Source of the DNA: Fimicolochytrium jonesii
Taxonomy: Eukaryota
DNA: 64,000 nucleotides
Assembly (NCBI RefSeq): GCF_025526975.1
Contig: NW_026515670.1
Span: 372,001 to 436,000, forward strand
Reading direction: 5' to 3'
Positions 10,074 through 60,780 of this stretch are shown in pieces (positions within the stretch are counted from its first letter, which is position 1; every line of letters starts with the position of its first letter). A program made the position numbers and the translations under genes. Under the pieces are notes generated by a model. That model had not been told where the DNA came from, did no database searches, and saw only the letters and a list, made by a program, of their open reading frames with translations.

Positions 10074-10112
10074 CAACAACCCCCAGCTGCTGTGCCTCCA
10101 CGCCAAATCACC

Positions 10113-11039: not shown

Positions 11040-14000
11040 AGGCCGAGCAGCTGGGCAACACCTGTCCTGGGCCTTCTCACCACGCAAGTACTGCCAAGGG
11101 AGAAGCCACAAAACCTTGCTCCGATCCTGGCATCTCCAGCAACACCTTTCTCCTGACCACCAACAATGTCAATCTCCGATCTGAGATACCCTCACCCATG
11201 CGGATTTTGGGCCCATCCTCACCATTCGAGTACCCTGTTACCCTGCAGATATCGGCCCAGCGAGCTCCAGTTCAGCTTTCAGCACTACTTGACACCGGTG
11301 CGATGTTGTGCTTCATCGACGAAAGTTATGCCCGCAAGCACCGCATCCCACTTGTCAAGAAGGAGGACCCCATTGCGCTTGAACTGGTTGACGGACGTCC
11401 CAGCCATGCGGGCTCCATTACCCATCACACCCAACCTTTGGGCATGTGGGTCAACGACCATTTTGAGGAGGTGGTATTCCATGTGACATGTTCCCCGCAT
11501 GCGCCAATCATCCTGGGGCTTCCCTGGTTTGAGCTCCATGATGTGGAGCTACACTGGAAGACTCGCACTCCTTGCGTCCGCTGCCATTGCGGTTTTGGAC
11601 AATACGCCTCCTGGGATGCCCTGCCAACAGAACCTACCCCGAAGCCCTCAAGAACCCCTGAACCTCTGATCCGTATCCATCAAGACGAGATTTCAGTCTC
11701 CCTAGCCCAGACACCCAACACACTGGACCCAGCACCCACACCGATCCATGTATCGTTTATCAGCGCCCCAGCTTTTCGTGTGGCGGCAAGGCATGACCAG
11801 GCATTCATTGCCTACGCCAATCCGACCAAGTCAGATTCCCAAGCCCTGGCGACCACTCCTCCAAAAGATCCGAAGGCCATCATTCCTGAAGAATACCAAG
11901 ATTTTGCGGACGTCTTCGCCAAGAAGAACGCGGAGACCCTCCCAGAGCACCGACCCTACGACTGTCCCATCGACTTAGAAGAGGGCAAACAGCCACCGTT
12001 CGGCCCGATCTATAGTCTCAGCGAGCCTGAAATGCAGGCACTCTGTGACTACCTTGAAGAGAACCTAGCTAAGGGGTTCATCAAGCACTCCAAGTCTCCC
12101 GCCGGTGCCCCAGTCCTCTTTGTCAAGAAAAAGGACGGTTCCCTCCGTCTGTGCGTCGACTATCGTGGACTCAACAATATCACCATCAAGAATCGCTATC
12201 CCTTGCCCTTGATTAACAGCATCATGGATCGTCTTCGAGGGGCACGCCGGCTCACCAAGATTGACCTCCGGGGAGCCTACAACCTTCTTCGGATCCGGCC
12301 AGGGGATGAATGGAAGACAGCGTTCCGATGTCGCTACGGCCTATTCGAGTATAATGTCATGCCGTTTGGGCTCACCAATGCCCCTGGAGTATTCCAACAC
12401 CTCATGAACGACATATTCCGTGACATTCTCGACGTTTTTGTTGTGGTCTACCTTGACGACATTCTGATCTTCTCAAAAAACCCAGAAGACCACCCCAACC
12501 ACGTCCGAGAGGTGCTCTCACGACTCCGCCAGCACGGGCTGTATGCGAAACCGGAAAAATGCGAATTCAACCGTGACTCTGTTGAGTTCCTGGGGTTTAT
12601 CATCTCCCAGCAAGGCATTTCCATGGACCCAAAGAAGACGGCTGCCATTACCGAATGGGAACCCCCAACGAATGTCAAAGGCATCCAGCGCTTCCTTGGT
12701 TTTGCCAACTTCTACCGGCGATTCATCAAAGGGTACTCTGCGATCGTTGCACCCCTGACCACGCTCACTCGCAAAGACTTGCCATTCAAATGGACCCACG
12801 CTGCACACCTAGCTTTTGAAACCCTCAAGAAAGCCTTCACCTCCGCACCTATCCTGACTCACCCCGACCCTGACAAGCCCTTCATTGTCGAATCCGATGC
12901 CTCCGACTTTGCCCTTGGCGCCGTCCTCCTTCAACCCGATGACACAGATCAACTCCACCCCGTGGCCTTTCACTCCCGCAAATTTACTCCTGAGGAAATC
13001 AACTATGAGATCTACGACAAGGAACTCCTGGCTATCCAAGACTCATTTGCTCAATGGCGACACCACCTCATTGGTGCCCGCCACAAGGTCATCGTTTACT
13101 GTGACCACAAGAACCTCCAGTACTTCATGACTACCCGTACCCTCAACCGCGGCCAATCCCGCTGGTCAATCTTCTTTGCTGATTTCGACTTTGTCATCAC
13201 ATACCGCCCTGGTACCCAGCAACACCAAGCTGACGCCCTCTCTCGTCGCTCTGAATACGAGCTAAGGGAGGGGGAAGAAGCATTCCGCTCCCAGGAAACC
13301 ACGATCCTCACCCCTGACCACCTCCGCCTGGCCGCCACTTATCTGACCCCACTGGACTCCTCGCTCCTTGACCAAATCAAAGCTGCCCTGGCATCCGATG
13401 TGTTTGCGCAAACCATCCGGCGACAGCTTAGGGCCCCCATTGCCCAGCAATCTCAAGAAGACCAAGAACGGATAAAGCGATTCTCCGAGGAAAATGGGGT
13501 TCTGCTGTACGACAACCTTGTCTACGTCCCCACCAACAAGCTCCGTGCTGAGATCTGCCGGGACATGCATGACACGCATTTGGCAGGACACTACGGCATG
13601 TCAAAGACCCTGGAGCTCATCTCACGCAACTACTGGTGGCCTAGCCAGTGGCGTTTTGTCAAGTCCTACATCAGGTCCTGCGACGTATGTGCTCAAGCCA
13701 AGACCAGCAGACACAAGCCCTACGGACTCCTCCAACCCCTGCAGGTCCCTGACCGCCCCTGGGGGTCAATTTCCATGGACTTCATCACGGATCTACCCGC
13801 CAGTGATGGGGTTGATTCTGTGCTCGTTGTCATCTGCCGGTTCACCAAGATGGCGCACTTTGTACCGTGCAGGAAAACTGCCACCGCTGAGTCAACTGCA
13901 GATCTGATCTGGCACCATGTCATCCGGCTCCATGGACTCCCCGACGATATTGTATCTGACCGTGGTCCACAGTTCAACTCCCACTTCTGGAAACGTCTCT

Positions 14001-14866
14001 TCGCTCTCCTGGGAACCATGGTCAACCTCTCATCGGCGTTCCATCCCCAGAGCGATGGACAAACCGAGCGGACCAATCAGATTCTTGAGCAATACCTTCG
14101 CTGCTTTTGCAACTATCAACAAGATAACTGGAAGGAACTCTTGTCTTCTGCTGAGTTCTCTTACAATAACACCATCCACTCCGCCACCCAGACAACCCCC
14201 TTCTACGCCAACTATGGGTTCCATCCTCGATTCAGTCTGGCTTCCGCCACCACAACCGAATCCCTTAATCCTGCAGCCGAAGCTCGTGCCAACCATCTCA
14301 AGGAAATCCATGAACAGCTTGCCACTGAGCTCAAGGAGGCCCAAGGACGCATGAAGCGCTTTGCCGATGCTAAGAGGGCACCTGGCCCAGACATGAAACC
14401 CGGTCACAGTGTCTGGCTCTTACAGCGGAATCTCAAGACTCTCCGACCTTCCCAGAAACTTGATCACCGTAAGATTGGCCCCTTCACAATCACGGAGAAG
14501 ATCAACTCGGTCACATATCGCCTCAAGCTTCCCCCATCCTACAAAATTCACAACGTCTTCCATGTCTCCCTTCTTGAACCACGTTTCACCATTCCGGAGC
14601 GAACTGAGCCAGAACCCACCCCACCAGAAGAAGTCGAAGGACAGGAGGAATGGATTGTGGAAGACATTCTTGACTCCCGTATTCGACGCACGCACCTTCA
14701 GTACCTCATCAAGTGGCAGGGTTGGCCAAGCTCGGAGAACACATGGGAGCCAGTGGAACACCTTGCCCGATGTCAAGAGCTTGTAGCCCAGTTCCATCAA
14801 AAGTACCCCGACAAACCCCGACCAAAGCCTGCCAACATCAAAACAACATCTGGACGCCGTGGCTAA
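10994..14866 (+). CDS. pol: Pol of C (PR-RT-RH-IN-chromodomain), in the -1 frame to gag
   Basis: Frame open from 10994; LLDTGA, YLDD, ESDASD, H..GH..C..C, D-D-E, YLIKWQGWPSSENTWEP. Confidence 0.96.
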   Translation, partial: GTCTHPGFCPSPAAVKAEQLGNTCPGPSHHASTAKGEATKPCSDPGISSNTFLLTTNNVNLRSEIPSPMRILGPSSPFEYPVTLQISAQRAPVQLSALLDTGAMLCFIDESYARKHRIPLVKKEDPIALELVDGRPSHAGSITHHTQPLGMWVNDHFEEVVFHVTCSPHAPIILGLPWFELHDVELHWKTRTPCVRCHCGFGQYASWDALPTEPTPKPSRTPEPLIRIHQDEISVSLAQTPNTLDPAPTPIHVSFISAPAFRVAARHDQAFIAYANPTKSDSQALATTPPKDPKAIIPEEYQDFADVFAKKNAETLPEHRPYDCPIDLEEGKQPPFGPIYSLSEPEMQALCDYLEENLAKGFIKHSKSPAGAPVLFVKKKDGSLRLCVDYRGLNNITIKNRYPLPLINSIMDRLRGARRLTKIDLRGAYNLLRIRPGDEWKTAFRCRYGLFEYNVMPFGLTNAPGVFQHLMNDIFRDILDVFVVVYLDDILIFSKNPEDHPNHVREVLSRLRQHGLYAKPEKCEFNRDSVEFLGFIISQQGISMDPKKTAAITEWEPPTNVKGIQRFLGFANFYRRFIKGYSAIVAPLTTLTRKDLPFKWTHAAHLAFETLKKAFTSAPILTHPDPDKPFIVESDASDFALGAVLLQPDDTDQLHPVAFHSRKFTPEEINYEIYDKELLAIQDSFAQWRHHLIGARHKVIVYCDHKNLQYFMTTRTLNRGQSRWSIFFADFDFVITYRPGTQQHQADALSRRSEYELREGEEAFRSQETTILTPDHLRLAATYLTPLDSSLLDQIKAALASDVFAQTIRRQLRAPIAQQSQEDQERIKRFSEENGVLLYDNLVYVPTNKLRAEICRDMHDTHLAGHYGMSKTLELISRNYWWPSQWRFVKSYIRSCDVCAQAKTSRHKPYGLLQPLQVPDRPWGSISMDFITDLPASDGVDSVLVVICRFTKMAHFVPCRKTATAESTADLIWHHVIRLHGLPDDIVSDRGPQFNSHFWKRLFALLGTMVNLSSAFHPQSDGQTERTNQILEQYLRCFCNYQQDNWKELLSSAEFSYNNTIHSATQTTPFYANYGFHPRFSLASATTTESLNPAAEARANHLKEIHEQLATELKEAQGRMKRFADAKRAPGPDMKPGHSVWLLQRNLKTLRPSQKLDHRKIGPFTITEKINSVTYRLKLPPSYKIHNVFHVSLLEPRFTIPERTEPEPTPPEEVEGQEEWIVEDILDSRIRRTHLQYLIKWQGWPSSENTWEPVEHLARCQELVAQFHQKYPDKPRPKPANIKTTSGRRG

Positions 14867-14878
14867 AAGAGGGGGTGA

Positions 14879-15407
14879 TGTTATGGACGACGCGTCCATA
14901 CCATGCGCTTACCTCATGACAGCATCCCAACAGTCAGTCAATGTCAATTCCCTGTCCCAACCTGACATCTGCCAAACCTTGCAGCCGCACGCAGCCGCGC
15001 TACCCCACACCTGCCACTGCCTTCATTTCTCCACGCAGCCGCACGTAGCCACACCTCCCAACACTCGGCGCTTACAAACCCTTCTCCATACTTCCCCACG
15101 TACCCGCCCACAGCCTCAGCGTAGCCACCCCATCCCCAGTCTTCTGTTTCTATGCTTCCCCACCCTTGGCGCTTCTCTTGGCTTCCCCCCATTCCGTACC
15201 CTTCTGCTTCCCCACGCTTCCCCAGCCTTCCCAGAAAAACATAAATAGCCGCCTCCCCTGAGCTCCCCACTTCCTGATCCCCCAGCAGATCAACACCAGT
15301 TCTTCCTAGTCTTGTTCTAGTTCTTGTTTCGGTCTGAATACCATTACCTGTCAACAACCTGCACCACAAGTCGCCTCTATTTCCGTCGGCTCCGCCCATT
15401 CTTAACA
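14879..15407 (+). repeat. C 3' LTR
   Basis: Repeat of 9533-10061. Confidence 0.96.
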
Positions 15408-19216: not shown

Positions 19217-19285
19217 GGCGAAAAAGGTTTGTCGGATGCAGGGCTGGACGGGTTCTGAACTTCGCAGTGTTGGAGCAGATCAAAC

Positions 19286-21192: not shown

Positions 21193-23032
21193 CTATTGAC
21201 CTTGGAAAAAACTCGAAGATTGATTTGTAGTAGTATTCGTAGTATTCGCAGAGTTGATGGCGTCATCGAGAATTTCCGTAATGCGTGACCCAGCATCAAC
21301 CTGATTGGCTGAACCTTGTTGTTGATTAGGTTGGCAACTGCGCTGCGGAGTTGGAGCGCTACGACCGCGCTGTTGAAAACCACCGCGTCGGTTCTGGGTT
21401 TGCAAGCCTTGCTGTCGATTTTCGGGATTTGACCAGCATTCAACTCTCCAATGTCCCATTTTGTTACAAAGGGGACAAGGAGTCGTTGGGCGTTGACGAG
21501 GAATGTGAGTAGTTTGCCATTGTCCACGTCGATGAAAGGGCTGTTGACATTGGTAGGGAACTTGACCTGTAGTGAGACGACTCACTCCAGGAGGATAGTA
21601 TGACGTACTGTGGGCATTGAGTGTTATGGACGACGCGTCCATACCATGCGCTTACCTCATGACAGCATCCCAACAGTCAGTCAATGTGAATTCCCTGTCA
21701 AAACCTGACATCTGCCAAACCTCGCAGCCGCACGCAGCCGCGCTACCCCACACCTGCCACTGCCTTCATTTCTCCACGCAGCCGCACGTAGCCACACCTC
21801 CCAACACTCGGCGCTTACAAACCCTTCTTCATACTTCCCCACGTACCCGCCCACAGCCTCAGCGTAGCCACCCCATCCCCAGTCTTCTGTTTCTATGCTT
21901 CCCCCACCCTTGGCGCTTCTCTTGGCTTCCCTCTCATTCCGTACCCTTCTGCTTCCCCACGCTTCCCCAGCCTTCCCAGAAAAGCATAAATAGCCGCCTC
22001 CCCTGAGCTCCCCACTTCCTGATCCCCCAGCAGATCAACACCAGTTCTTCCTAGTCTTGTTCTAGTTCTTGTTTCGGTCTGAATACCATTACCTGTCAAC
22101 AACCTGCACCACAAGTCGCCTCTATTTCCGTCGGCTCCGCCCATTCATAACATTGAGCCCCAAGGTCATATCATCTAAGTCTTGCTCAAATTCCGTAATC
22201 CGAGGATTGGTGTAAGGGGCGAATCGTCTGCCACGACCACCGCCGTGACTACCTCGACCGCGGCTGCCTCCACGGCCGCCACGGGCACTCCATGCCAAGG
22301 TAATCAGACGAGGCGTATTGGGCGTATTGGCTTGGTTGCCGTCAGTGAGCCCGTGAGCCACATGAGCACGACGAGCTGCAGTGATAGCTTGATCGAGAGT
22401 GATAGGGGTGTTGATGTTGGTAGTGCCCAAGACTTCAAAGTTTGTAACGGCTTCAGCAAGATAATGACCGATTACCGTATTCTTGAGAAGACCGGCCTTG
22501 AAGTACCGATATATTTGTCAAGGAAGTCTCCGAGCTTGAGACCGGAGAGCTTGAGCTCAATAGTATTGCGCAAGTTGCGAGGATAAAAGTGAGCGACAAG
22601 AGCCGTTTCAAAAGCTGTCCAACTTGCGGGAGCGCCGGAGGCGTAAGTCGTATTGTACCACTCGAGAGCAGTACCCTTGAGATAGGCAGTGAGCGTAGGG
22701 GCATACTCTGCCATAGTAAAGGGTATGGCACTTGCAGCTCCAGTACCGTCTGTTCCAGCTGCTACAGCCGGGAAAGTGAGAGACTCGAGAAAGTTGTGGT
22801 GAGACGTAACGAACTCTTCGATCTTTTTGGCAGCTTTGGCGCCATCGTATTCGACGAACTTATTCTTGCGAGCGTCCATAAGAAGTTTGAAACGTTCGGC
22901 TCGTTGGGTGTCTGATAGCTTGAGTCTGTCCGTCCATTCTTGCTTGTAAACAAGTGTGTGGGCGACGTCCGGTAGAAGGGCAACGTTGACGAGGAATGTC
23001 TCGGTGATGCTAGCGGTAGGTGGTGCTACCAT
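21193..23032 (-). pseudogene. gag: A gag, frameshifted and split by a solo LTR
   Basis: YLKGTALEWY, RGG stretch, CPLCNKMGHWRVEC; ends at slippery T TTT TTC. Confidence 0.88.
21622..22152 (+). mobile_element. Solo LTR of the C family in A gag
   Basis: 531 bp; TSD TTGAG. Confidence 0.95.
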
Positions 23033-23306
23033 GTAACGTCAGAGGAAACGTAGACGATATTGGGCCCTTCTGAGAGGGCTGAGAGCAGTGTATTGTAGTG
23101 AAGAAGTAGGTAATAAGCTCTTCGCAGCGGCCGCTCAACTGACAGCTTTATATATGGGCTGCCAGTGGGGCTTGCGTGGCTTCAGTGAGGCTTGGCGCCT
23201 TATGTAATGTATCACCGAGAGCTCGGATGGCCAGCCCGGGTCTTGGATCAAGTAGAAGTAAAGAGATACAATATGAAATACAAGTGAGGATGAGATATCC
23301 CTGACA
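23032..23306 (-). repeat. A 5' LTR
   Basis: Followed on the minus strand by PBS TGGTAGCACCAC. Confidence 0.95.
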
Positions 23307-23664
23307 TCGTCCACGTATACCAGGCAGAAGCTGTACTTTAGTCCTGCTAGGACCGCGTCCATCACACGTTGGAAGGTGGGCGGAGAATTCTTGAGGCCGA
23401 ACGGGAGTTTGTTGTACTCAAACAGCCCATGGGGTGTACAGAAGGCTGTGAGGTGCTTGTGTTCTTCCTTGATCGCTACCTGCCAGAATCCCCAGTGTAA
23501 GTCCATGGTTGTAAACCACTTATTGCCGGCGAGGAATTCAATGGTCAAGTTGATTCGAGGCAGCGGATAGGAGTCGGGTATCGTCTTTGCGTTGAGTTCG
23601 CGGTAGTCAGTGACGAACCTTAGTCCACCCCCATCCTGACTAGCGACACTGGAGCGGCCCATGG

Positions 23665-23826
23665 TGTCAAGGGAATCGTCCCAATCGCTCGGAACGCCCC
23701 GTAGAGGTGGTACAGTCACAGAAACAAAAGAAAAATGTTTGGGGAAGGTAGGAATCGAACCCACGCCACCTGGGTGAGAGCCAGGTGTCTTAACCACTAA
23801 GCCAAAATGTCTGTGTTCCCGTTACA
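23665..23826 (-). mobile_element. 162-bp solo LTR (family D) containing a tRNA-like cassette
   Basis: TGTAAC...TTGACA; TSD CATGG 23660-23664 / 23827-23831. Confidence 0.93.
23740..23811 (-). tRNA. tRNA-Glu(CTC)-derived pseudo-tRNA inside LTR-D
   Basis: A box TGGCTTAGTGG, anticodon arm CCTGG-CTCTCAC-CCAGG, T arm GTGGG-TTCGATT-CCTAC, T5 run downstream; acceptor stem not paired. Confidence 0.8.
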
Positions 23827-24644
23827 CATGGTGATCTACTGGGTCGGATGATGTTGTCCTTCAGCATCGTGTCGGTGTGCTCTCGTAGGACCTTCTCTTT
23901 CTCCTGGCCCTGTCGGCGTGGAGGGTGGGCGATGGGAAGAGTCTCAGGCATTATCTTCATGTGGTGTTTGGAATGTTTGGCTTGTCCGGAATTTGGGGGT
24001 CGAACGCTTCCGCATTCGCTAGGAGCACGTCCCGTAATGCTTTGTCTTCTTCTGGTGTCAGGTGTGCCCAAGGCGCCATTGCTTCTATTTGGTCTCGTCC
24101 TCGGCGGGCGGCTGGTGACACGTGGGATTGCTCGTCCTCCAGAGGGGTGGCGGCCGCTTCCAAATCCTTCATCTTGTGAATGACTGATGTCTTCGCCAGT
24201 TCGCCAATCTTCCCTTGCCCCAACCCTTTCACCTCCACTGGTCCCTCTTCCGGCTCGTCCGTTCCGTAGGTCTTCACTTCCTCTTGGCTCTGAAGCATGT
24301 AGAATGCTGAGCCGGTGGTGCTTCTTAATCTGGGCATCTTCCAATGGCGTTGGCCGGCGGCCTTTGGGCCGTTCGGCCATGCGGGCGGCGGTGGCGGTAG
24401 GTCATTCTTCAGGTTTTCGGTCAACCATCCGCTCAGCTTCTCCTCCGTCAGATACGCTTCAGGCACTGGTTCTACCCGTAGGTCGTGGTTGCTGGCGGTG
24501 GCCATTCCGACGACATGATTCTTCCGAAGGATGCGCTTCCTGGGCGTGAGATTTGCAACCGGGTACAGCCATTCTCCGTTCTCGTCGGCCTTCCCGAGTT
24601 GGTTCGCACACCATATGCCTGACTCGCCTAACGCCTTGTTGCCT

Positions 24645-29204: not shown

Positions 29205-31606
29205 GTTGTTGTCCCGGCGACCTCTCAAGAACATGTTGGAGATATCATCCTCCCAAGTCCCTAGTTAGGGTTCCCGTAGTCTAGTCCCTGGTTAGGGTTC
29301 TAGTAGTTTATTTCCCCATGTGACTTCCCTCCCGCTCACGCCACGCTTCCGCGTACGGGACTTCACTCTTTTCGTCCCTTTCGGACCTCGCGACCTCTTT
29401 CTACTTCAGACAAGTCCACAGACAACACTGCATTACTTCTTATACATACAAGGGCGTGTCCTCCCCATTACATAGAGTTCACTCCTCTATCTGCTTCCTC
29501 TGCCAACTACTGCTAAGTGAACAGGCCTGAGCACAGACCCCTGACTGAGGACTGGAACGAGAGGACGTCTGGTACACACCGATTGCCAGAAGGAATCCCG
29601 ATCGGGATCAACAGCAAATGGCAGACCGAACACGCACTAGAGCTGGCCCAGTGGCTCTATCGGTCGCCACTGTACTTAAGCGGCGGCAAGAGGATTCGAG
29701 CGAGCCCATTGGAAGTTGAAGAATGACTTCTCGGCAAGATTCAAGGGCAAGCTGGGCGAAGACATGTATGGATTTCTCGAGAGATTGAAGCAGGAAGCTC
29801 AAAGCCGTAGACCAAAAGTATTTTGATAGCCTCAATGACATGGTGCCCTTGTGCAGCAGTCTGTCGTCGACCAACATTACGTTTGAGCAATCCAAGGAGC
29901 AATTCTTAGCTCAATACGACTAGAAGATACCTCCTATCCACCGCTCGGCAAAGGTACCCAGGATGAAGAAGCTCAAGAATTAAACGTTGCACGACTTCTC
30001 AATTCGAGTCAAGGAAGCTACTTTCCACCTCGGTGACGATGCTCTTAACCTAGGCCATCTCAAGTGCGCCTTCTACCAAGGCCACAGGCCTCGTGAGCAG
30101 GACAAAATCGAGGAGGTGAAGATAGCCGGACAGAATTGATAAGATGTGACAACAAGAAACGGCTCTGAAGCCGGCGCCACGCCCGAAGCTCCTCCTCTTC
30201 CTCATTGTACTCGTAGTTGAGTACCAGTGGCTCCTCGTCTGTTTCTTCTTCAGAAGAAGAACGCAGACGTTGTTGCCGTAACAGGAAGAACAACAAGAAG
30301 TTCCGGCCTCAGCGACAAGGATCCCCATCGCCGATTCTGAAGATGCCCGTTCAAATTGCCCCACCTAGCACCATGCCTACCACGGACATTGAAAAGCTCG
30401 CAAAGCAGGCGGCAGAGGATGAGATCACCAAGTTCAAAGAAGAACTCTGTTTGACAGGTAGCCAACGGACACCTAGGATGGGCTGTGCACCTGACGGAAT
30501 CCGACGATGACCGGGATGATTACTCCAGTTACCAAGCGTACATGATGGACCAACAACAAGGTCCCTACCTCCGCCAGCTGTACCCACGCAACGACTACGG
30601 CCAGCAGAGGCAGAACGGCCCCAGTACGCAAGTTCAAGAAGTTGTGAAGAAGGCGGTCGCTGAGATGGCCGCACAAATAGCCAAGGTGCAAATTACCAAT
30701 GGCCAGTCCTTGGGAGGATCACCGAGGATCGGAGACGGAAAGTGTTTTGCCTGAGGGGATGACGACTTCAAGGGCGACGTGGACCGTGAGACAAGGAGAC
30801 CAGTATGCCCCAAGAAACAAAGCCCCAAGGTGGGAACTGCCAATGCTGACAAGCGGCATAGTCCCTGCCAGGGCTAGGAGCCTTCCAGTCCTGGAACACA
30901 TGGCTCTTGAGCAGAAAGGCCATGGAGAATTGCTGCCTCAAGATCAGAATGAAAGTCCGACCTTTCCCGCTCGGTCACCATCAGAACCAATAAGAGGGAG
31001 TGATTCCGACTCCACAAGCAACTGGGAAACTCGAGGAGAGAGAACAATAGCTGACAATTTGTTACAACCCCAACACCTGTCCAAGTCAAGAGACAAAAAA
31101 CTTGACTTGGAGGACCCTAACCAAACCCGCTACCCGTCTTCGCCGCCCGAAAAAGAACTTTACTTGATCAACTTGGTTGACAAGAACGATTTTCAATTAC
31201 ACCCCAACATCTTCCAGCAACTCAACCAACGAATCTCCCACGACGCTTTCGAAATTTGTTGGAACACCGCGATTGGTTGGGCCAAGCCCCCTTGGCTAGC
31301 CATTCAACAGGTGCTTGACAAGGTTGTCACAGATGGAGCGACCATTACTCAGATCACCCCAGTATGGTGAGAAGCTCCATGGTACCTCCAGCTCCTCACG
31401 CTCCTTGTCGACTGTCCCAAGTTGCTGAACCACAAATGAGACATCTTCGCCAAGGGCGGCTTCCGTGAACAAGATGAAGGTGTTTACGGGCTTCCACCCT
31501 CCAGTGATTCTGCCGCCATTCACCACTTCCGAGACCGGATGCGCCAAGCGTGGACATACAAGACCGGCCCCCGCCATGTCAAGCGCCTTCCATTCCAAGA
31601 CTGCTA
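29205..31606 (+). mobile_element. Diverged inverted copy of H gag and MTase region (H')
   Basis: Collinear with the reverse complement of about 28105-25795; WAKPPWLAIQQVLDKVVTDGATI; internal deletions. Confidence 0.9.
29234..29518 (+). mobile_element. Solo LTR of the Copia-2 family (TG...GT ends)
   Basis: Homologous to 60323-60556; TSD GAACA 29229-29233 / 29519-29523. Confidence 0.9.
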
Positions 31607-31721: not shown

Positions 31722-33660
31722 TGTGGCAAGATGGGTCATCGTGCGCGAGATTGTCCTAAAAAGAAGAAGGATAAGAAGTCCGACGAGGCTAAGGATAAGC
31801 CGCGTTGGGACGCTGGTCAGAAAAAGGGTTTTCGATAGAGACGTTTAATAAAGACACCGTTAGTGGCAACCAAGTTATTTTGTGGCGATCTACAGTTATG
31901 GGGAGATGGACGACACTATTCCAGAGAACAGCTTCCACTTGTGGTCGCTCCTCTGTGGGTAGATGTTATCCTCGGATTGCCATGGATCTATATGCTTGAC
32001 GATGTTCGTTTCGAGCACATAGAAGACGAGATTCCTGTTCTACGATTCCGTGCGGATGAAGTTGAACATACCCCTGGTTGCCAGACCAGTAACTAGGGAA
32101 TGGGAATCCCAGTCGTCCTGTAATGCGGCCGACCTGCGGTTCTTTGACACCAGAAAGAAGTCTAAACGATTCAAGGCGGCGATGCCTGAACGGGAAGACT
32201 CGAGTGAAGGGATTGTAATTGATCAGAAGTTCACTCGCTTATCTTGAAAAGAGGTGTATGGAAAGTGTTACATAGCGTACGCTATGGACATAGAAGCTGC
32301 AGTGAATGCGTCACCAGCTTATGTCCCCGCAGATGAGCGCGATCGTGCCGAACCAGAGCCAGAGGTTCAAATGAGCGAAGCTGCAGGACAGAAGGTTGAA
32401 TTGGGCGTGCCATCGGATCGCCTTCTTTATCCAACGTTCGAAAAGTGCGTGGATAGTTTGTTTGTCAAGCACGCAGAGTTGCCGCCCGATAGGGGAGAGG
32501 ATAACTTCCATATCGAGCTGGAGCCTGGTACGAAACCAGTCTTAAATCCCTTATGACATATGAGCGAAGCTGAACTCAAAGAGCTGAATGAGAAGGTTGC
32601 TCTCATGCTCGAGCGCGGTTGGATTCAACACCTGCAGAGCCCGTGGGGTGCGGCAGTGTTATTCGCTAAGAAAAAGGATGGCAGTCTCCGTATGTGCATC
32701 GACTATCGTGGGCTGAATAAAGCAACGATAAAGGATCGTACGCCATTCCGAAATCTTGCAGAGATGCAGGATCGGTTACGTGGAAAGAAGTTCAAGTCTT
32801 TGTTGGATATCAAAGATGTGTATCACCGCCTATTGGTTTGCAAGGCTGATAGAGACAAAACAGCGTTTCGGACGCGGTTTGGTCATTTCGAGTACTTGGT
32901 TATGCCATTTGGATTGACGAATGCGCCAGCAACGTTCCAACGGTTAACCAATAAGATATTGGGCGAGATGTACGATGCGTTTGTCATATCTCACCTGGAT
33001 GACATCTTAATCTTCTCGGAAACGGCCGAGGAGCATATTGCTCATGTGGATAGCGTTATGGCTGTTCTCGCCGAGCACAAACTCTATGTTAAGCCGTCCA
33101 AGTGCAAATGGATGCAGAAAGAGCTTGAATTATGCGGTCATCTCCTGGGAGAGGATACAATGGCCATTGCACCCTCGAAATTGGACGCCGTGCGAAACTT
33201 TGCACGTCCTATGAAACAGAAAGAGGTTCAGTCTTTCTTAGGGTTGACAAATTACCTGAGTCAATACGTCGATCGTTATGCATAGATCGCGTATCCATTG
33301 ACAGAGCTACAGTCGGGCAAAAGGCCTTGGCACTGGGGCAATGTTCAAGAGACGGCTTTCGTTAAGCTGAAGGAAGCTATTATCACAGCTCCTACGCTCG
33401 CGTCTTACGACCCGGAGCGAGATTTATATGTGTTCACGGATGCATCGGGTTTCGCAATAGGAGGATGGCTCGCCCAGCCGGCAGATCCATCGGAGCACTA
33501 CCCATCACCGTTGCCTACCTCAGTGAAGGGATCTAAGAATCTGCCACCGTTAAAGCCAATAGCTTTCTTTGGGCGGAAAATGCAACCCACTGAAACACGT
33601 TACCCCGTGCACAAACAAGAGCTATTAGCTCTGGTTAGCATATGCAAGGCGAACAGGCAT
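31722..33660 (+). pseudogene. pol: Gypsy G fragment (gag end, PR, RT, RH start), duplicated copy
   Basis: LRMCIDYRGLN, HLDD, FTDASG; mirror of 43686-45624. Confidence 0.92.
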
Positions 33661-36600
33661 CCCAGAGCAGGCATCCCAGATTCCTATAAAAGGCAGGCCT
33701 GTTGCCCATCCCCTCCTCTCACTTTATCCTCTTCAATACACAGCTTTCTATCGTGCTACTCTAGCCCCAGTACTGTCGTTTACATCACAACACTGCCCTT
33801 TGGGCAGCTATGTTCCTCAGTCATCGGCGAACCAGTCTTAGCAACCTCTCAGATACACCTATATCAGCTAAAGGTTTCAATAGGTTATGAGCCCTGAGCC
33901 TTATCATCACTAAAACCGGCTTCACCAATCCTATTCAAGACGTTTGCAACCCCCTACAGACGCTACCTATGCCCTACCCTCAACATATCCTGTTCATAAA
34001 CACCAAAGTGCTCAACTTGACAGGATACGCACTGCTTGACACTCAAAACACGTCCAATGATATACCATCATCCAAAGTGTGTCCACACTCTCGAAACAGA
34101 TGAATTTCGCTCGAACACACGATGGCTGGAGACTCAGAGACTTCAAAACTTATGGTGGATAAGTCCACGGGGGAGAACTACCATCTATGGAAGTTTACGA
34201 TGATGATGATGTTGAAGGCAAAGGGACTTTGGGTGGCAGTGGAAGCTGGGAAGAAGGAGAAGGCAGGAGATACGGCTACAGCAAGCCCGTCGAAGGGAAA
34301 GGGGGCTGAAGGGTAGGAGGAGGAATCAATGGAGAGGGAGGACAAGAGGGCTTTGGCATACATCTGCCTCAGTCCGAACGACACTCAGCTTACGCATGTG
34401 CATACAGCTTAGACGGCTTGGGAAGCCTGGTCTAAGCTAGCTGAGGTGCACGAATGAAAGGGGCTTGCCAGCAAGCTCTTCCTATGTCAAAAGTTCCTTA
34501 CCATCACTATGAACGAGTCAGACTCGATCACAAACCACATCAACAAGGTCAGACAGCTTGCACAACAGCTGGAGGCTATCGGTGCACCAGTACCCGAAGA
34601 CGATATCATGACCACCTTGATATACAGCTTACCAAACAGCTATGAACAAGTTATCACGAGCCTCGAAAGCAGGGCAGACGACTTAGACATGGAGTTCTTG
34701 ATGGCCAGACTTCTGAATGAAGAAGCTAGGTGCAAGGAGAACTCGAAACCAGTCAGATCGAATGGAAACGCCTTCGTTGGGGATGGGGGACACCAGCAGG
34801 AGGCTGGGGGTTCAGCCAGGTTCGCCAGGAAGAAGGATAAGTGCCATCACTGTGGCATTTAAGGGCATTGGAAGAACGAGTGCAAGAACCTCAAACGAGA
34901 GCTAGCTCAAGCCAACAATGCGAATCAAGCCGAACCACACCAGGCCAGCCAGGGAACCGGGTTCCTCTTCATGGCAGGTATGAAGCGCACTGAAATCATC
35001 AGCCCTGAGTGCTGGATTATCGATTCAGGAGCCTCCTCACACATGACACACGTCAGGGAATGGCTCCAGGACTACAAGACGCTGGAAACCGAGATCCAGG
35101 TCCAGCCAGCTGACAACCGGTCAGTCCTAGCCATCGTGACAGACTCCATCTCGATGAGAACACACGGGGAGCATGCTAGCACCCTTCGAAACGTCTGGTT
35201 CGTTCCCAAACTGGAAAAGAACCTCATCTCAGTAGCCCAGCTGACTGAGAATGGAGCATAAGTTGAGTTCTCGAGTGCAGAGTGCACAATCAAGACCAGG
35301 GATGGTGCTCTTGCTTGAGCTCTCAAGGAGAACGGTCTGTACACCATGACAGCCCAGGCTATCCCTGAACACGCCTACTCAGCAGGAGCACTTTGTAGCA
35401 CACCCTTTCATATCTGGCATCAGAGATTCGGTAATCTGAACGCCCAAGACGTCTAGAAGCTCACCAACGGCTACCAACGTGACATCAGAGTCATCGGATA
35501 TCCTGATGGCCACATCTGCAAAGTCTGCACGTTCTCCAAGCAGTCCAGAGCTCCCTTCCCGAAGAAACAAGCTACCCGAGCCACAGAAGTCCTGGCACTT
35601 GTCCACACTGACCTCAATGGCCCCATGAGGACATCTACCTTACCTTTGGGGGATGTACCTACTTCCCATCATGGATTGATGAAAAGTCCAGAATTGTCTG
35701 GGTCAAACTCCTACGCAAGGAAAGCGATACCTTTGATGCCTGGGAGGAATACAAGGTTCTTATGGAGGAACAGACTGGGAAATCAATCAAAGTCCTCCAA
35801 TCGGGCAAAGGACGCGAATACGAATCCATCCAATTTGCCCTCACATTCCGAAAAGCTGGAATCCAACACCAGCGCGCTGCTACCGACACCCCACAGCAGA
35901 ACAGAGTAGCGGAACGTACGAATCAAAGTCTAGTCGACATGGCACGCTGCCAACTTACCCAAGCTGGTCTTGGACACGAATACTGGGGAGAAGCTCTGCT
36001 TGCAGCTGTCCACATTCGAAATCGTTGCCCTATGGCTGCTCGCAAGCCCATCCTCCTACATCTCAGAGTGTTTGGATGTATGGAACCTATGCATAGTTCT
36101 CAAGAAAAACTGAGGACAGCTGGACAACAAAGCCAAGAAGTGTCTTTTTCTCGGTTATAGCTCTTCCAGCAAAGCCTGGAGGCTCCAGTCACTCAAACCC
36201 GATGATCAGGGCGCCATCATCGAATCAAGAGATGTCCAGTTGAATGAAAACAAGTTCTACAACAGCCTGGACAACGAGGATACGCATGAAGACACGTCAG
36301 ATCACTCCTATGACAGCTTAGCGAGCTTTGAATTCGAACCTGAGCCTGACAGCATCATTTCGCACGCACCCAAGCCCACAGACAACACCGAATTACGCCC
36401 GCACGCTGCAGAGGGGGATTCTGAGCTCCCTGACGCATCCCCCAACCCACAACCTGACACTGATCAATGGGCAGAGGCCCCAGAGGACCTAGACGACCAG
36501 GGAGACCAGGAAGATGATGATTTGGTGCATTACAGACGCATCACATGCTCCCAGAGCACCCGAGTACACCAAAGCAACCTTGCCTATGCCCTGGCTACCA

Positions 36601-39138: not shown

Positions 39139-39166
39139 ACACCTATATCAGCTAAAGGTTCCAATA

Positions 39167-45624: not shown

Positions 45625-48235
45625 ATCGAAAGACTTCATGTGCGAGAGGTCTGGGCGTGCGTAAGGTTTAGCAGCTTCCGCCTTCTTAGCTTTCCCCCCC
45701 TTCTTGCCCGCAGTACCCGCGGCAGAAGAGACATTAGCACGTTTAGGCGCACCACTCCCAGAAGCAACCGCTTTATTGTTCGCGTCGGTTCCCTTATCGG
45801 CAAGATGACGTACAGCAAACGAACTAAGTGCACGATCCATCAAACGAGTTGATGGAAATGCGAGCAGAGGGTGTTGCTCCCTATAATCGACCATCGTATG
45901 CACTAACGACTGGGCGATCTCATAGCCAACGGTATTGGTCTTATCGCGAGTAAGACCACAAAGGAACAGGTTATTCAAATCGTCGGGAGTGATAACCTCC
46001 AGGTTGCGCTGTGCCTCGGCAACGATACATTTGAACTCCGTCACATACGAATCCATCGACTTATGATGAAAAGTCATTCGGTGCAAAGCATTGAGCGCGT
46101 TCGTTTTCGCGTTCGTAGGATAGAAGGCTAACTTGAAAGCCGTTTCAAAATCCTCTTTCCGCATGTCAGGCCTGCATGCGGTGTTGAACCAGGTACGTGC
46201 GTCGCCTTCAAGCGAGCTAGATACCTTCTGCATGTACTCAAAGTCGTCAATCGGAAGACCAAAAGTAACCATGAAGTCTGTATGCTTCTGCAAAAACGTG
46301 TCGACAAAAGCGGCCTCACGCCGTTTGCCATTGAACGGATGCTGCAAGATCCGTGTACCATGGTGCCTACGCCGCTCGATATAGAAAGGATCCACCGACC
46401 CATCCTGCAGCACATCACGGCGCATTGCGGAATCACGCTCCAACGTAGCTCGCACACGATCCTGTTGAGCGTGATGTTCCTCGGCATGTTGATCGCGAAC
46501 TTCTGCTCAAGTGGCAGCCGCGGCAGCCTTCATTCGGGCATTAAGCTCCTCGACGGATATTGTCAACATAGCCTTAGTGGGCAGGTGACCAGGAGGAGGT
46601 CGAGGAGGTCCACCGACCTGGATACCCTCCATTGGAACAGGTCCCGTCGTTCGAGGAGGAAGAGGAAGGCAAACTTCAACACGAAGCTCGTCAACCGACG
46701 TTTCCGGCTCCTCAACGATCTCAGTAATAACAGCTGTACCCACAGGAGTAGTGTCCTCACTCCTGGTAACTGTACTACCCGTTGACGTACTCATGACGAC
46801 CTTCTGGCCAGTGTAATCTTGTTGTCAGGTTGAATAACCTCAAACAACGACGAATACGTCCAGAATGCGGACACAAGTACTCCGTTGATGTTGTATAGCT
46901 CAGTACCTCAAGCAAGACACACAAACAACTAAGTTCTCGAATCAGGTATATGCCATGTGCAATAACCAAAATTCGGGCATAGATTTCCCCTCTTCCGAGC
47001 GAAAAGTCCCCAAAATCCACCGTGTCCGATGTCGGCGGGTTTTGGCTACGTTGATCCTAGACAGGATCTGAAGCTATCAGTTTGAAGAGGCCTTTGAGAG
47101 GATCAAGAAGAACTCTAACGGCTTAGCTCTGTCCCAAAACTGAAAGACTTTTCCTATCCGCCCGTTTTCGCTTAAGTATCGAATTAACGACGAAGGCGAT
47201 GACGGATAGCTCGTTTTGCAGTGATTCAAAAATCCCAAAACGTTCAGGTGAATTCAAGGTGATTCTCAGGATTGGGAAGAACCTTCTCGGGGGTCATTTC
47301 AGTCAGACTGTGATAGTTTTGCTATACGGAGGTTATAATGGCGACGATTTAGCGCGTTTTTTGATATCTCTGTATCCGTAGGTCGAATCTCTTTGAAACT
47401 CCCACAAGTTTTCAAGCTCAGTGCGCTCTACAAGGTTTCCGAGTTTGAAGGGGATAGAATTACTGGGGTAGATTTCCGATCCGTGAACGGGTTACTAATT
47501 GGCCACTAGTAAACACGCGTTTATGTTGACTATGTGTCAACCGTCGAACGTATACTCTCAAGATGTTGATATACCGAAAGAGTAAGGTATGGATGGCAAA
47601 CTATGAGTTACGGAGGTTTGTTTAACCATCCAGGTGCGAAAAGCGAGGTGGTTGCGACGTATCGGTCGTTCCACTAGGTAAATAACCTAGAGGCCGGCGC
47701 TTTTCGACTATAGCGCACTAGGGGCCTCAGGAGTTGCAGTGGACGGTGCCCGGGACGTCCCCAAGGCTATATGAATCGTCTAGAATGATTGTATCGACGT
47801 TCTGGGACGATTGCTGCGTCCGCAATTTCGAGATGCTGAAGTTGCCGAACGCGTTTATCTACTAGGAAGCTCGTTTCGTTCGAACGAGTGGTGCTACCAT
47901 GTGATGTGGACTACCTTCCACACTGGTTGTTTAACTGATGTTCATTAACAATAACTACTTTGCTGTAAGGTATTGTAGACGGACTGGGTATTCGTTGGCT
48001 CTGCTATGCGATATGTAGTAGAAGAACTACTTGTTGTGCATAGGAACGCGCGACGAGCACTGTTGAAGTACCCATGGGGTCGGAGTCCACTGGAGAACAC
48101 GTTCCAGTGAGGCATTAAAAGAATGAAAACCTTGAACCCACTGGAGAACACTGTCTGGGACATGTCTCGCACTCCTAGCGAGACATGTCTCGCCGACACG
48201 TCGTTCTCCAACTAGACAGGACAACCCACATTACA
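43686..48235 (-). mobile_element. Gypsy element G, 5' half: LTR 47900-48235, PBS, 1.1-kb leader, gag, pol truncated in RNase H
   Basis: PBS TGGTAGCACCAC 47888-47899; gag ORFs 46794-45508 (LEGDARTWF, FDCGEMGHRAGDC); RT YLDD in 44061-45092. Confidence 0.92.
45508..46794 (-). pseudogene. gag: G gag
   Basis: Capsid-like motifs, zinc knuckle, ends at G GGT TTT slippery site. Confidence 0.85.
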
Positions 48236-51869: not shown

Positions 51870-52292
51870 GGTCCAGGCATAATCGGAGCCGTCGTCGAGG
51901 AACGCGAGACTGTAGCGCTCTCCGTCGATGCCGCAGATCCAAAATGGACCTTGTAAATCGCTGTGTATCAGCTCACCGGGTTTGTGTGGCGGGGATGTCA
52001 ATTTAGGGAAGGTAAGGCGGGTAGCTTTGCTGAGAGCGCATGGATCGCAGCGTGCGCCGGAGTCCGGCGTAGCCCCCACTGAAGGCCAATCCTCTACTAT
52101 CTTGGGCATAACCGGGAGAATGTGGTTTCCTGGATGTCCCAGACGTTGGTGCAGAAGTTGGCAGGTTATGGAAGCAACCAGTGCATGTGCATTGGGCTTG
52201 TAGGTAGTAACCCGTCCTTCTAAATAGTATGCGTCGCCTTCGCGCATCCCCATCGCGAGTAAGTGTCGGTCAGTGTTGAACATGACGACGTC

Positions 52293-52656
52293 CGTAATGT
52301 GTGTTGGGTTGTCCAGTCTTATTGGAGAACGACGTGTCAGTGAAAGGCCTTCCGACCTGTCAGTGAAAGGCCTTTCGACCCGTCAGTGAAAGGCCTTTCC
52401 TAAGCACTTGGGCTTACGCCCGTCACGCTCAGGCTTACGCCCTTCACGCTCAGACAGTGTTCTCCAGTGGACCCCGACCACATGGGTACTATAACAGTGC
52501 TCGTTGAGAGTTCCTATTCACAACAAGTAGTTCTTTTACTACATACCGAATAGCAGCGCCGGGAACACCCAGTCCGTCTACAATACCTTACAGCAAAGTA
52601 GTTATCGTATATGAACATCAGTTAAACAACCAGTGTGGAAGGTAGTCCACATCACA
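52293..52656 (+). mobile_element. Solo LTR of the G family in Copia-2 pol, with internal tandem repeats
   Basis: Decayed TSD ACGTC/ACATT; 22-bp unit x3 and 21-bp unit x2 inside. Confidence 0.88.
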
Positions 52657-54201
52657 ACATTGGTGGGGTGAAAGGAGACGGTAACGCCGTTATCAGTGCA
52701 TTTAGCAACAGATATAAGCGGCTGGACAAGACTAGGAACCAATAACACGTCGCGTAGAGCGGGAACGTTGCCACCGGACATAGATTGGATAAGTCCGGTA
52801 CCCTTGTTTTGAGAGGTGATGGTAGTCGAATCCACGAGTCCAATAAGGCGTTGGTAGTCTTGAAGAGAGGATGGATCTAGATCCTCGAAATAGGGGGTCA
52901 TGTGATCTGTACAGCCGGAATCCACGTTTGCCTTGAAGATCCGGACATCGTGGTTGGCTGGGTGGACTTGAACGTGCATGGCATGGGCCGTGGAGGCTGC
53001 AGCGGGTGCGTCCTGCTTAGTTTTCGCGTTCTTGTCCAAAATGTCTTTGCGAGCTTTGTAAGTAAAGCAGTTTTCCGACTTGTGGCCATCCCGTTGGCAG
53101 TATTTGCACTGGGGAGGCTTCTTGATTGCATCAGAAGATGACGATTGGGTAGAGGGGGTGCCTCTAGAGCCGCCAGGCTCGGATTTGTTCTTCCTCTTCT
53201 GAGGTAGATTGGAAGTAACGTGGGCAGCGGATGCGCCCGACTGATGCATACCCGGGGTCTTCTCGTTGCGCTAGTCGGCTATGCGAATCGCGGCCTCTTG
53301 AGAAGGACTAAGGTGATCGTCGTACTGAGCCTGGGCAGTGATCAGGGTACTAAGATTATTAGGAAGGGCTTGAAGGAAGTCGGCACAGAGTATGTATTCC
53401 GGGAGCCCAGGTAGTTGTCCAGCCAAAAGGTTGAACTGGGCGATGGTTAATTGACTTGGGCTTCAGTGCGCGCAGTCTGTGAAGAACTTGCAGCAGATGA
53501 GGGCGGGGAATGAAGCGCCTTAACATCGCAGAGCGTAATCCGAGCTGAGGAGGCAGTCCATAGACGTCTTGAATATCGTGCCATGAAATTATGGAGAAGC
53601 GCTCATTTTCAGGAAGGCTTTTCCACCACTGGAGAGCTGGTCCCGTGAGCGCGTTGACAACGAAGTCTACGCATTTGGAAGGCGAAATCATCTGGTACTT
53701 CATAATCACATCAATGTGATAAATGAACCCTTGTAGCTTGGTAACGTTGGGGTCGCCATTGTAGGTGCCAAGTTTACTAAGCATAGTGTTGATGAAGACT
53801 TTGGAAGCTGATTTGCCGGCCGAAGGGGGTGTTACAGGAGTAACTGATCTCACAGACGCACTTTTGTGATGAATTTCAGCGAAAGGAGGGCTTTGAGAAC
53901 GGGTTTGAAAGTAAGGATGCCGTTCCGGGGCTTTATAAGCGTATGGGAAAGAGTTGGCCATAGCGCGCTGAGGAGGCGCATGGGGTGCCAGCGACACAGA
54001 GGTCACGTATGGCACATTTGCCTGGATGGGGCTAGTTGAGTAATGAGAACGAGTGCTGTTCACAGGCGACTGAGCGAGCGGGTTCACGGAGGGGACTGTC
54101 ACAGAGGGGCCCGGGTCTCTCGTCCGCTATGGGGTACCTAGGACCGGGTTGTTGGTATCGCAGTATATGTATGGTCCCGAGAAGGACTTGTGGTGCTACC
54201 A

Positions 54202-54363
54202 TGTCAAGGTAATCGTCCCGATTGCTCGGAACGCCCTGGAGAGGTGGTACAGTCACAGAAAGAAGAGAAAAATGTTTGGGGAAGGTAGGAATCGAACCCA
54301 CGCCACCTGGGTGAGAGCCAAATGTCTTAACCACTAAGCCAAAATGTGTGTGTTCCTGTTACA
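54202..54363 (-). repeat. LTR-D (tRNA-containing) with a PPT-like tract upstream and a PBS downstream
   Basis: 162 bp; PBS TGGTAGCACCAC 54190-54201; purine tract at 54364-54390 on the minus strand. Confidence 0.9.
54277..54348 (-). tRNA. tRNA-Glu(CTC)-derived pseudo-tRNA in LTR-D, copy 2
   Basis: A and B boxes intact; anticodon stem has two G-U pairs. Confidence 0.75.
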
Positions 54364-58181: not shown

Positions 58182-58343
58182 TGTAATGGGAACACACACA
58201 TTTTGGCTTAGTGGTTAAGACACCTGGCTCTCACCCAGGTGGCGTGGGTTCCATTCCTACCTTCCCCAAACATGTTTCTCTTCTTCCTGTGACTGTACGA
58301 CCTCTCCAGGGCCTTCCGAGCGATCAGGAAGATTCCCTTGACA
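58182..58343 (+). mobile_element. 162-bp solo LTR-D with tRNA-like cassette
   Basis: TSD GTCTG/GTCCG. Confidence 0.92.
58197..58268 (+). tRNA. tRNA-Glu(CTC)-derived pseudo-tRNA in LTR-D, copy 3
   Basis: A box 58204-58214, anticodon CTC 58230-58232, B box with one substitution. Confidence 0.72.
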
Positions 58344-60780
58344 GTCCGTGCCCTGACCGATTCACCCCCCTACGGCGAAGCCCAACGCGCCGGAGAAGAT
58401 GTAGGGAACTTATCACGGTCGAAGAACGCCAGGGCAGGGGCATCGGCGACGCGCGCCTTGATGGTGTCGAAGGCTGCTTGTTCCTCGGCGCCCCACTGCC
58501 ACGGGCGGGTGCTGGATTGAAGGTTGGTCAGTGGGAGGGCTGTGTCAACATAATGCGGAATGTATTCCTTGACAAAGTTGACTAGCCCCATGAAGGAGAG
58601 GAGCTTGAGGGCGCTGGTGGGTTCGGGTCAAGCGCGGACAGCCTTGACCTTGGATAGGGCGATAGAAAGGCCGTCCTTACCGGCCATATGCCCGTAGAAC
58701 CCGACCTCGTCCACTGCCCACTGACATTTGGACAGTTTCACGTGAAGGCGGTGAGCCGAGAGGGTCTTGAGCACTTCAGTGACATGCCCGATGTGTGAGT
58801 CCATGTTGGGACTGAAAATGAGGATGTCATCGAGGTAAGAGATGAGGTATGAATCGTACTTGTCACCCAGGAGTTTGTTCGTGAGGCGTTGGAACGTCCT
58901 GGGCGTGTTTGTCAGCCCAAAGGGTAATACGTTGTACTGGAAGTGGCCGAAGCGCGTCCGGAAGGCAGTCTTCTCACGGTCTTCCTCCCAAATGAGGATG
59001 CAGTGGTAGGCATTGCGGATGTCGATAGCGGTGAAGACCTTCATGCCGGCGAGGCGGTCCCGAAGGTTGTTGAGGTTCGGGAGGGGCGTGGCCTCCTTAT
59101 GGGTCATCTTGTTGAGGGCCCGGTAGTCGATGCAGCAGCGGAGGCCACCGTCCTTCTTGGAGGCAAACAGTACGGGTGCCCCCCAGGGGCTCTTAGAGTG
59201 GGAGATCCACCTGCGGGATGATAGGCGCTTGAGTTGCTGCCGTAGCTCGTCGAGTTCGTCGGGGGCCAAGTGGCGGAGTGGGAGCATGACAGGCTTGAAG
59301 CCGGGCCTCAGATTGATGCTGAAGTTGTCGTCGCCGCGGTCCGGCGGGAGGCCGGTTTGTTTGGTGAAGAGGGTATCTGTAAACTGTTCCAACGTGGGGC
59401 AAAGGGGGTGGTCGGCGGCGACCAACGCAAGTGGATCCTCCGGGGTGGTATCCAGAGGGGTGGCCGTTGCCTTTCGGTTCGCTAGGATCGCACTTCTCTT
59501 CGCCTTGACTGTGCAAACAAAGTCAGCCTCGGCTTCGGCGACGTCCGCAAGGGTGTTGTGTGTGGCCAGGTCCACATCCGTGTCCGTGCGTGAGACCCAT
59601 GCGGTATAGACCTCGGTGGTCTTATCCCTCTTGATTACTCGCTTGAATTGTTTGGCCGTGAGGAAGCCCTCCTCATTTAAGGCCGCGCGCTTGGGGTAGA
59701 AACGGCGGGGGTGAGGGCCCGTATGAGGTTTGAGTAACCGGGCCGCGCAAGCGCTGGGTTGCTGCCATCGGAGGGTGGTGGGTTTAGCTCGGAAAGTTAG
59801 TACGGTTGCGTTAGCCTCAAACTGAAGTGCTGGGAACCCATTGTCGCGCCATGAACGTATGAGGTCAAGGTCCAAGATGTGTAGCCCTAGGATAACATCC
59901 GCGCGGATCGGGGCCACGACAAACGGGACCCGAGGAGTCTTATGAGGTATTCGTTGCTCCGTGAAGACGGAGACGTCGGCGCAAATCATCCGCGTGGCGC
60001 CGTACGATCCGGCTTTGTCAACCCAGCGCACCTCAAGGGGCGTGGGACAGTCGTACGTGTTAAGATCATGGTGTTGGGCGAATGAGTCGCTGATGAGCAT
60101 GGTATTGCAACCGGTGTCTATGAGGATGCGGCAGAAGATGCCGCCGACACATCCATGGGCCATGAACGTGTGCTTGTCGATGACGGGCCCGGGGCGGTAT
60201 TCCAGAATGGTGTCCTGCAGTCGGGGTCTGGTAGGTCCCTCGGGTTGTCTGGCCGCTGAGGCGCTGCAGGCGGTGAGGCCCTGGGGAGAAAATCCTGACT
60301 TTCGATGGAGTACGCGGGGCTCTGTTGGAGGTTTCATACTCTCAAGTCCCCGGTTAGGGTTCCCGTAGTTTATTTCCTCACGTGACTCCCCTCCCGCTTA
60401 CGCCACGCTTCCGCGTACGGGACTTCACTCTTTTCTTCCCCTTTCCGACCTCATGTCCTCTTTTCTACACAAAACAATACATACTTCACAGTACAGCATT
60501 GCACACTACATAGAGTCCCCTCAGTCATCTGCTTCCTCTGCCGACTACTGCTAAGTGGTCATGAGCCCTGGCTTCGGCCGCAACTAGCGGACGTTCCAGG
60601 ATAAAAGAACTCACGGTCTCCAGTCACCGCACTCTTAAGGATTCAACAACCCAATCTCAGAAGGGCTACGCAGCTGCAGTGACAGCCGGCAAGCCCTCCG
60701 CTCACCACACGCGGTCCCAGGGAGGAGCTCTCCTGGGCCCACTACCTGCGGCTACTAGAGGGGGAGGAAAGAAAGTTCAC

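Follow-up and report, generated by a model that had tools for sequence, protein, structure and literature searches.

Three 162-bp units in the window, the 64-kb stretch of DNA analysed here, are LTRs that carry a tRNA-derived cassette with A and B boxes, and they very probably represent two solo LTRs and the 5' half of a non-coding TRIM of the Helenus type. Because the window holds no complete element with two such LTRs, only a 5' half surviving, we infer TRIM status rather than observe it, and the roughly 90 nt that follow the primer-binding site (PBS) of the half element may just as well open a long leader as form a short, non-coding internal domain. The features on which this reading is built are collected in Table 1.

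Table 1. Positions of the tRNA-bearing LTRs, their parts and the elements that bear on their interpretation
Feature	Position	Strand	Evidence or remark
Copy 1, solo tRNA-bearing LTR	23665..23826	-	Rfam tRNA (RF00005) 34.9 bits; 5-bp duplication
Copy 2, 5' LTR of truncated element	54202..54363	-	RF00005 29.3 bits; without target duplication
Copy 3, solo LTR	58182..58343	+	RF00005 32.1 bits; flanks GTCTG/GTCCG
tRNA-like cassette of copy 1	23740..23804	-	Rfam tRNA match and boxes
A box of copy 1	23804-23794	-	
Anticodon arm of copy 1	23785-23769	-	
B box of copy 1	23761-23751	-	
T5 of copy 1, after cassette	23735-23731	-	
PBS TGGTAGCACCAC of copy 2, directly after LTR without spacer	54190..54201	-	12-mer at LTR edges
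Internal stretch of copy 2, ~90 nt, apparently non-coding	54100..54189	-	Unique in window
5'-truncated Copia arm (gag C-part, protease, start of integrase) fused to copy 2	51881..54099	-	Pol_BBD and gag_pre-integrase matches
Copia's own 5' LTR, 234 bp (60323-60556), and PBS GGTCATGAGCCC	60323..60568	+	
Copia's own 3' LTR, partner of 60323-60556	49005-48772	-	
12-nt PBS behind Gypsy LTR, candidate helper	47888..47899	-	gag 45511-46506, RT 44064-45098, RNase H 43452-44060
12-nt PBS behind 275-bp LTR, second candidate helper	23020..23031	-	gag, zinc knuckle and Gypsy-like protease follow

Three LTR units and their tRNA-like cassette

All three TG..CA units of the original prediction are present and align without gaps, with pairwise identities of 151/162, 148/162 and 149/162 (91-93%). 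Read in the direction of the cassette, the units run from TGTAA to TTGACA, and their ends form an imperfect inverted repeat (9/11, 7/11 and 9/11 positions in the copies). As a correction to the original prediction, the sense strand is minus in copies 1 and 2 and plus in copy 3. Of the two 5-bp target duplications claimed, that of copy 1 is perfect (CATGG at 23660-23664 and 23827-23831), whereas the flanks of copy 3 agree at only four of five positions; copy 2 has neither a target duplication nor a second LTR in the window. Sensitive BLAST detected no fourth copy or fragment in the 64 kb, and exact patterns of the family gave no matches in metagenome, prokaryote-genome or viral contigs. RIP-type decay was rejected (TpA/ApT 0.70).

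The window consists of nested Gypsy and Copia remnants. A Gypsy RT domain is broken at its start by copy 1, its homology picking up again at 23638, and another Gypsy pol is split by copy 3 at a point where RT homology lies on one side and RNase H homology on the other (pol homology reaches 58409 and resumes from 58128). Both copies are thus passengers, solo insertions in Gypsy pol genes. The youngest-looking element in the window is an apparently intact chromodomain Gypsy at 9533-15407, with 529-bp LTRs that are 99% identical, a gag and a pol frame of 1290 codons.

A tRNA covariance score, proposed as a check of the original prediction, exceeds the RF00005 gathering score of 29 bits in all three copies (Table 1); the three are the only matches of any kind in an Rfam scan of the window at E up to 1, with no 5S rRNA among them. 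From A box to T-run the tRNA-like part occupies LTR positions 23-96, 46% of the unit and close to the 45% predicted, with only 22 nt of LTR upstream of the A box and 75 nt behind the cassette. The A box, TGGCTTAGTGG, is found in all three copies as expected, whereas the B box, GGTTCGATTCC, and the TTTTT behind the cassette are kept in two of the three: copy 3 has one change in each, reading GGTTCCATTCC, with the B-box G lost, and TGTTT. The anticodon and T stems are fully paired in every copy, in line with the prediction, and two changes in the anticodon stem of copy 2 both still give G-U pairs. The reported loss of the acceptor stem and lack of a TATA box also hold: we found no acceptor stem in register, no Glu-type end pairs and no TATA on either strand of the unit. 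ARAGORN called no tRNA in the window and, with the acceptor stem gone, the cassette is no functional tRNA. In the predicted fold of the unit a displaced helix of 4-5 bp closes the cloverleaf, and the folding energy is not better than that of shuffles (z -1.0, +0.8 and -0.6 in the copies).

As a reference for the cassette we used tRNA-Glu genes from metagenome loci with the same anticodon arm (at least 119 loci). ARAGORN called tRNA-Glu(CTC) in 110 of the 119 loci listed for the anticodon-arm pattern, and 51 distinct eukaryotic tRNA-Glu(CTC) sequences with full flanks formed the comparison set; the same pattern had no matches in viral contigs, and none of the 119 loci listed showed any likeness to the U5 or internal stretch of the tRNA-LTR. 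The best of the 51 genes matches the cassette at 47/58 core positions, for which the fair figure is 24/34 because 24 columns were fixed by the search pattern. The D-loop, the four-base variable loop and the anticodon loop of the cassette are of Glu type, and these loop features support the proposed Glu(CTC) label, in a gene search conditioned on the anticodon arm and made against metagenome genes rather than the host's own gene. The acceptor strands agree with the tRNA-Glu(CTC) majority at only 2/7 and 2/7 positions. When the three copies, which count as one event, were aligned with nine hand-picked tRNA-Glu(CTC) genes, the T stem proved to carry two double-sided changes relative to the genes, and one D-stem pair of the cassette was broken.

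The comparison of box conservation with the rest of the LTR that the original prediction proposed gave a weak signal for the cassette as a whole, and no significant one for the boxes by themselves. The cassette varies at 3/65 columns compared with 16/97 in the rest of the LTR (Fisher P 0.025, with three copies and boundaries set after looking); with the pyrimidine tract left out the counts are 3/65 and 12/82 (P 0.057), and for the A and B boxes alone they are 1/22 and 18/140 (P 0.47, not significant). These figures are suggestive, and not proof, of constraint on the cassette as a whole. The lack of a significant signal in the boxes, the broken B box of copy 3 and a short direct repeat, ACATTTT, found on both sides of the cassette in two copies (1 and 2) like the trace of an old insertion duplication would all suit a tRNA-Glu retrocopy or SINE head that entered an otherwise unremarkable small LTR on a single occasion and has since been passive cargo, its boxes not needed. 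We consider this unlikely, because variation is lower across the whole cassette than over the remaining LTR, the LTR without its cassette has nothing recognisable as a Pol II promoter, and the D-arm changes lead toward the TRGCY A-box form of Helenus while breaking one D-stem pair. A tRNA insertion into an LTR may be how the element began, as PMC10886601 proposes.

Primer-binding site, copy 2 and the split Copia

As predicted, one of the copies is followed by a PBS. The 12-mer TGGTAGCACCAC occurs three times in the window, and since all three occurrences lie directly at the 3' edge of an LTR (Table 1), we regard it as a real primer-binding site. Its start, TGGTAGCA, matches the tRNA-Met PBS quoted in PMC5445492, and the 12-mer appears to be of the initiator-Met 3'-end type. 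The element behind the PBS at 47888..47899 is a clear Gypsy, with capsid, RVT_1 and RNase H matches. Behind the 275-bp LTR, the protease gives sub-threshold Gypsy-type and no Copia-type Pfam matches, and its best phmmer match among seven window proteins is a Copia protease at E 0.006; we class the element provisionally as Gypsy-like.

Both Copia families of the window have a PBS of the form GGT(T/C)ATGAGCCC (33883-33894 and 60557-60568), which is the anticodon-loop (half-tRNA) type seen in rust Copia and Helenus. The paper describing Helenus (PMC10886601) finds this type to be common in rust Helenus, and also names a Copia primed by the 3' end of initiator tRNA. The PBS of copy 2 agrees in full with the one used by two Gypsy-type families and differs from those of both Copia families of the window, so that a Gypsy helper is favoured: with few families to compare in one window, we lean slightly toward a Gypsy family with the same PBS, and give a Copia a little less than even chances. 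A likeness of the U5 end of the tRNA-LTR to the 275-bp LTR at one of its ends (null P ~0.005, among 24 comparisons) is no more than a lead. In this 275-bp LTR (23032-23306) both ends look like tRNA-LTR ends with U3 and U5 exchanged, a weak likeness given the many comparisons.

The suggestion that the cassette acts as a primer for its own element found no backing: by eye, the LTR holds at most five contiguous bases complementary to its own PBS, and in Helenus, too, the cassette is not complementary to the primer site (PMC10886601). Elsewhere in the window, GTTTGATCTGCT (10062-10073 and 19274-19285) stands in place of a TGG primer site behind the Gypsy LTRs of 529 and 560 bp. The 529-/560-bp LTR holds a stretch partly complementary to GTTTGATCTGCT, and the exact 10-mer from its second base has no match; we take this to be a possible case of Tf1-type self-priming by analogy.

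The original prediction had assigned the units to a coding Gypsy family. Under this reading the tRNA-LTR would belong to an autonomous Gypsy (or Copia) with full-length members outside the window, and the cassette would be its genomic-RNA promoter or a TFIIIC barrier. Its PBS, identical to that of two Gypsy-type families, is compatible with such an origin. So is the internal stretch of copy 2, which is cut before any PPT and of which the length seen is a minimum: the surviving 102 nt contain no terminal polypurine tract, the longest purine run being 6. Copy 2, moreover, stands upstream of a gag in the same sense. This gag, however, belongs to a Copia and is entered mid-gene, at 54099, where the internal stretch joins it, and the 90 nt beyond the PBS match no leader in the window.

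The adjoining Copia arm is 95% identical to 61230-63044, where the full gag start is kept behind a different LTR and PBS, and for this reason copy 2 was rejected as the 5' LTR of that Copia. On the outer side of each of the two Copia LTRs (60323-60556 and 49005-48772) the flank reads GGCTC, and one nested LTR piece is found at an identical site in the two arms. These two features indicate that Copia 48772-54099 and 60323-63908 is one insertion, into a Gypsy gag-protease junction, that was split by an inverted duplication and whose LTRs now face opposite ways. Copy 2 thus sits at a later deletion junction and is not an LTR of this Copia; its contact with a gag is best accounted for by rearrangement of dead copies. 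No pair of tRNA-LTRs flanks a gag-pol of its own anywhere in the window.

A coding family would, in addition, have to work from an LTR without a TATA box and with only 22 nt before the A box, and Pol III RNAs are uncapped. The published argument on Helenus is likewise that autonomous partners must use Pol II (PMC10886601). We therefore regard a coding family as the owner of these LTRs as highly improbable. We found no coding element with a tRNA-type LTR in the open-access literature. Were a coding Gypsy of the chytrid-like fungus, with full-length members outside the window, to own such a promoter, it would be the first case of an autonomous element built on a Pol III LTR of tRNA type, an outcome to which we give very little chance; the family would be a surprise only if the tRNA-LTR proved to flank its own gag-pol.

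Several further observations concern the surroundings of copy 2 and the split Copia. Copy 2 was also considered, and rejected, as the 3' LTR of the Gypsy at 55312-60397, given ~1.4 kb of unrelated sequence between them, an opposite-strand TATA at 54729 and no adjacent PPT. The stretch upstream of copy 2, 54364-55620, is single-copy; it carries a plus-strand TATAAAAG (54729) and, at ~55400-55625, a tandem repeat that has diverged, and probably consists of LTR remains of other families. The LTR of the split Copia ends in GT, not CA; a solo copy of this 234-bp LTR family, with its own perfect duplication, lies at 29234-29518. Between the Copia RNase H and 3' LTR, 49121-49796 holds overlapping open frames with no Pfam match, one of them antisense and rich in charged residues. 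A second inverted duplication, of 6.5 kb at 96% identity, pairs 31722-38199 with 39166-45624; the duplicated piece is part of a Gypsy in which a Copia is nested.

Two further readings, a SINE and a non-autonomous DNA transposon bounded by short terminal inverted repeats, would account for the tRNA-like head near the 5' end and for the imperfect inverted repeat, but are scarcely credible for units of fixed length with TG..CA ends, 5-bp duplications and no tail, and are largely refuted by the PBS, which lies exactly at the 3' edge and is common to two other LTR families. The core of the original prediction, an LTR rather than a SINE with a tRNA-derived A/B-box cassette, is upheld by the same ends, PBS and missing tail.

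A proposed Pol III copying cycle

Judged from its motifs, the likeliest role of the cassette in a Helenus-type TRIM would be that of an internal Pol III promoter. TFIIIC on the A and B boxes would place the Pol III start within the first ~20 bases of the 5' LTR and, as internal boxes would drive the start, neither a TATA box nor a long U3 would be needed. The T5 behind the cassette would be a weak terminator at which most transcripts end, at ~90 nt. Others would read through past the PBS and the short internal domain until they meet this T5 again in the 3' LTR, and the terminal repeat (R) on which strand transfer relies would then be the cassette itself. Reverse transcription would be primed at the PBS by the host's initiator tRNA-Met, with Gag, RT and integrase supplied in trans by a larger element (Gypsy or Copia), and recombination between the two LTRs would account for the solo copies. 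Without an acceptor stem the RNA would presumably escape charging and also, given what RNases P and Z do, cutting as a pre-tRNA.

In yeast, five Ts are the minimal Pol III terminator and six are required for efficient termination (bioRxiv 10.1101/2021.08.27.457903), so read-through past T5 would be possible. No second run of five Ts occurs in the 5.4 kb downstream of the start of the copy 2 LTR, and T-runs alone would thus be no bar to a long Pol III transcript. Counting against a Pol III reading are copy 3, which is without the B-box G and T5, and a fold that does no better than shuffles. The LTR is unusually compact in what precedes its A box, and promoter, terminator and strand-transfer repeat would coincide in it; because of this coincidence, transcript data would offer a simple check of the proposed read-through.

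Helenus and other known systems

The novelty claimed for a tRNA-based LTR does not stand, as tRNA-bearing LTRs are already published: Helenus (TRIMp3; Kojima 2024, PMC10886601) comprises TRIMs with tRNA-derived sequence in the LTR, and a 2026 paper (PMC13570524) cites it as known. By definition, Helenus has two LTRs, a short non-coding internal domain and a PPT before the 3' LTR, in an element of less than ~1.3 kb (PMC10886601). The tRNA-LTR family is probably a new Helenus family of this known kind. Its exact motifs had no match in the Helenus consensus file of the PMC10886601 supplement, in which line breaks could hide matches, and a closer family may be present elsewhere in the figures or supplement of that paper.

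The likeness to fungal Helenus is extensive and takes in every feature that allowed a test within the window. Both have a sense A/B-box cassette in a short TG..CA LTR with a T-run behind it, and they agree in LTR length and in the boxes TRGCY, YGG and GGTTC, which are conserved in fungal Helenus (PMC10886601). Both also show 5-bp duplications, including around solo LTRs, which are frequent in the published fungal families (here one perfect and one 4/5 among three copies). In both, the PBS lies at the LTR edge, starting TGGTAGC here and in several published families, and the cassette is neither a functional tRNA nor complementary to the PBS. The cassette lies near the 5' end here, whereas it is near the 3' end in most of the rust Helenus families compared, and its Glu(CTC)-like character sets it apart from published fungal Helenus as far as compared. 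A practical consequence of tRNA-bearing LTRs is that they inflate tRNA gene counts, as three out of three pass the Rfam tRNA threshold here.

Fungal Helenus hosts in PMC10886601 are only rusts and Agaricomycetes, whereas the host here is probably chytrid-like. The nearest named relatives of the Gypsy RT of the window, among at least 120 matches, are three proteins of the chytrid Powellomyces hirtus at 56-58% identity; other named and most unnamed matches listed are at 35-49%, and a few unnamed ones at 58-62%. This one mobile protein suggests a chytrid-like affinity of the host. Best matches to a Copia RT of the window are at 38-45%, and these gave no placement of the host. We found no Helenus or TRIMs in chytrids in the open-access literature. 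As a Helenus family, the tRNA-LTR would extend the class of 2024 to a probably chytrid-like host, beyond its published host list.

The helper may be a further difference. Published fungal Helenus are tied to Copia (PMC10886601), whereas the PBS here points to Gypsy. A fungal Helenus riding on Gypsy instead of Copia, which we put forward tentatively, as something less than an even bet, would break the published split of fungal Helenus with Copia and animal Helenus with Gypsy. Animal Helenus resemble the present family in having tRNA-bearing LTRs with a PBS that matches Gypsy families (PMC10886601), and differ in their 4-bp duplications and other primer tRNAs, compared with 5 bp and an initiator-Met-type PBS here.

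Two other groups share parts of this organisation. Cassandra and Ajax TRIMs (PMC7215508, PMC10886601) are non-autonomous, as the present family probably is, and likewise would have their Pol III promoter inside the LTR; theirs, however, is 5S rRNA sequence with boxes A and C, to which the units here have no match. SINEs with tRNA heads (SINE2) have, like the cassette, a tRNA-derived internal promoter without an acceptor stem; they differ in their tails and variable duplications, and the PBS and TG..CA ends are features of the tRNA-LTR that SINE2 elements do not have.
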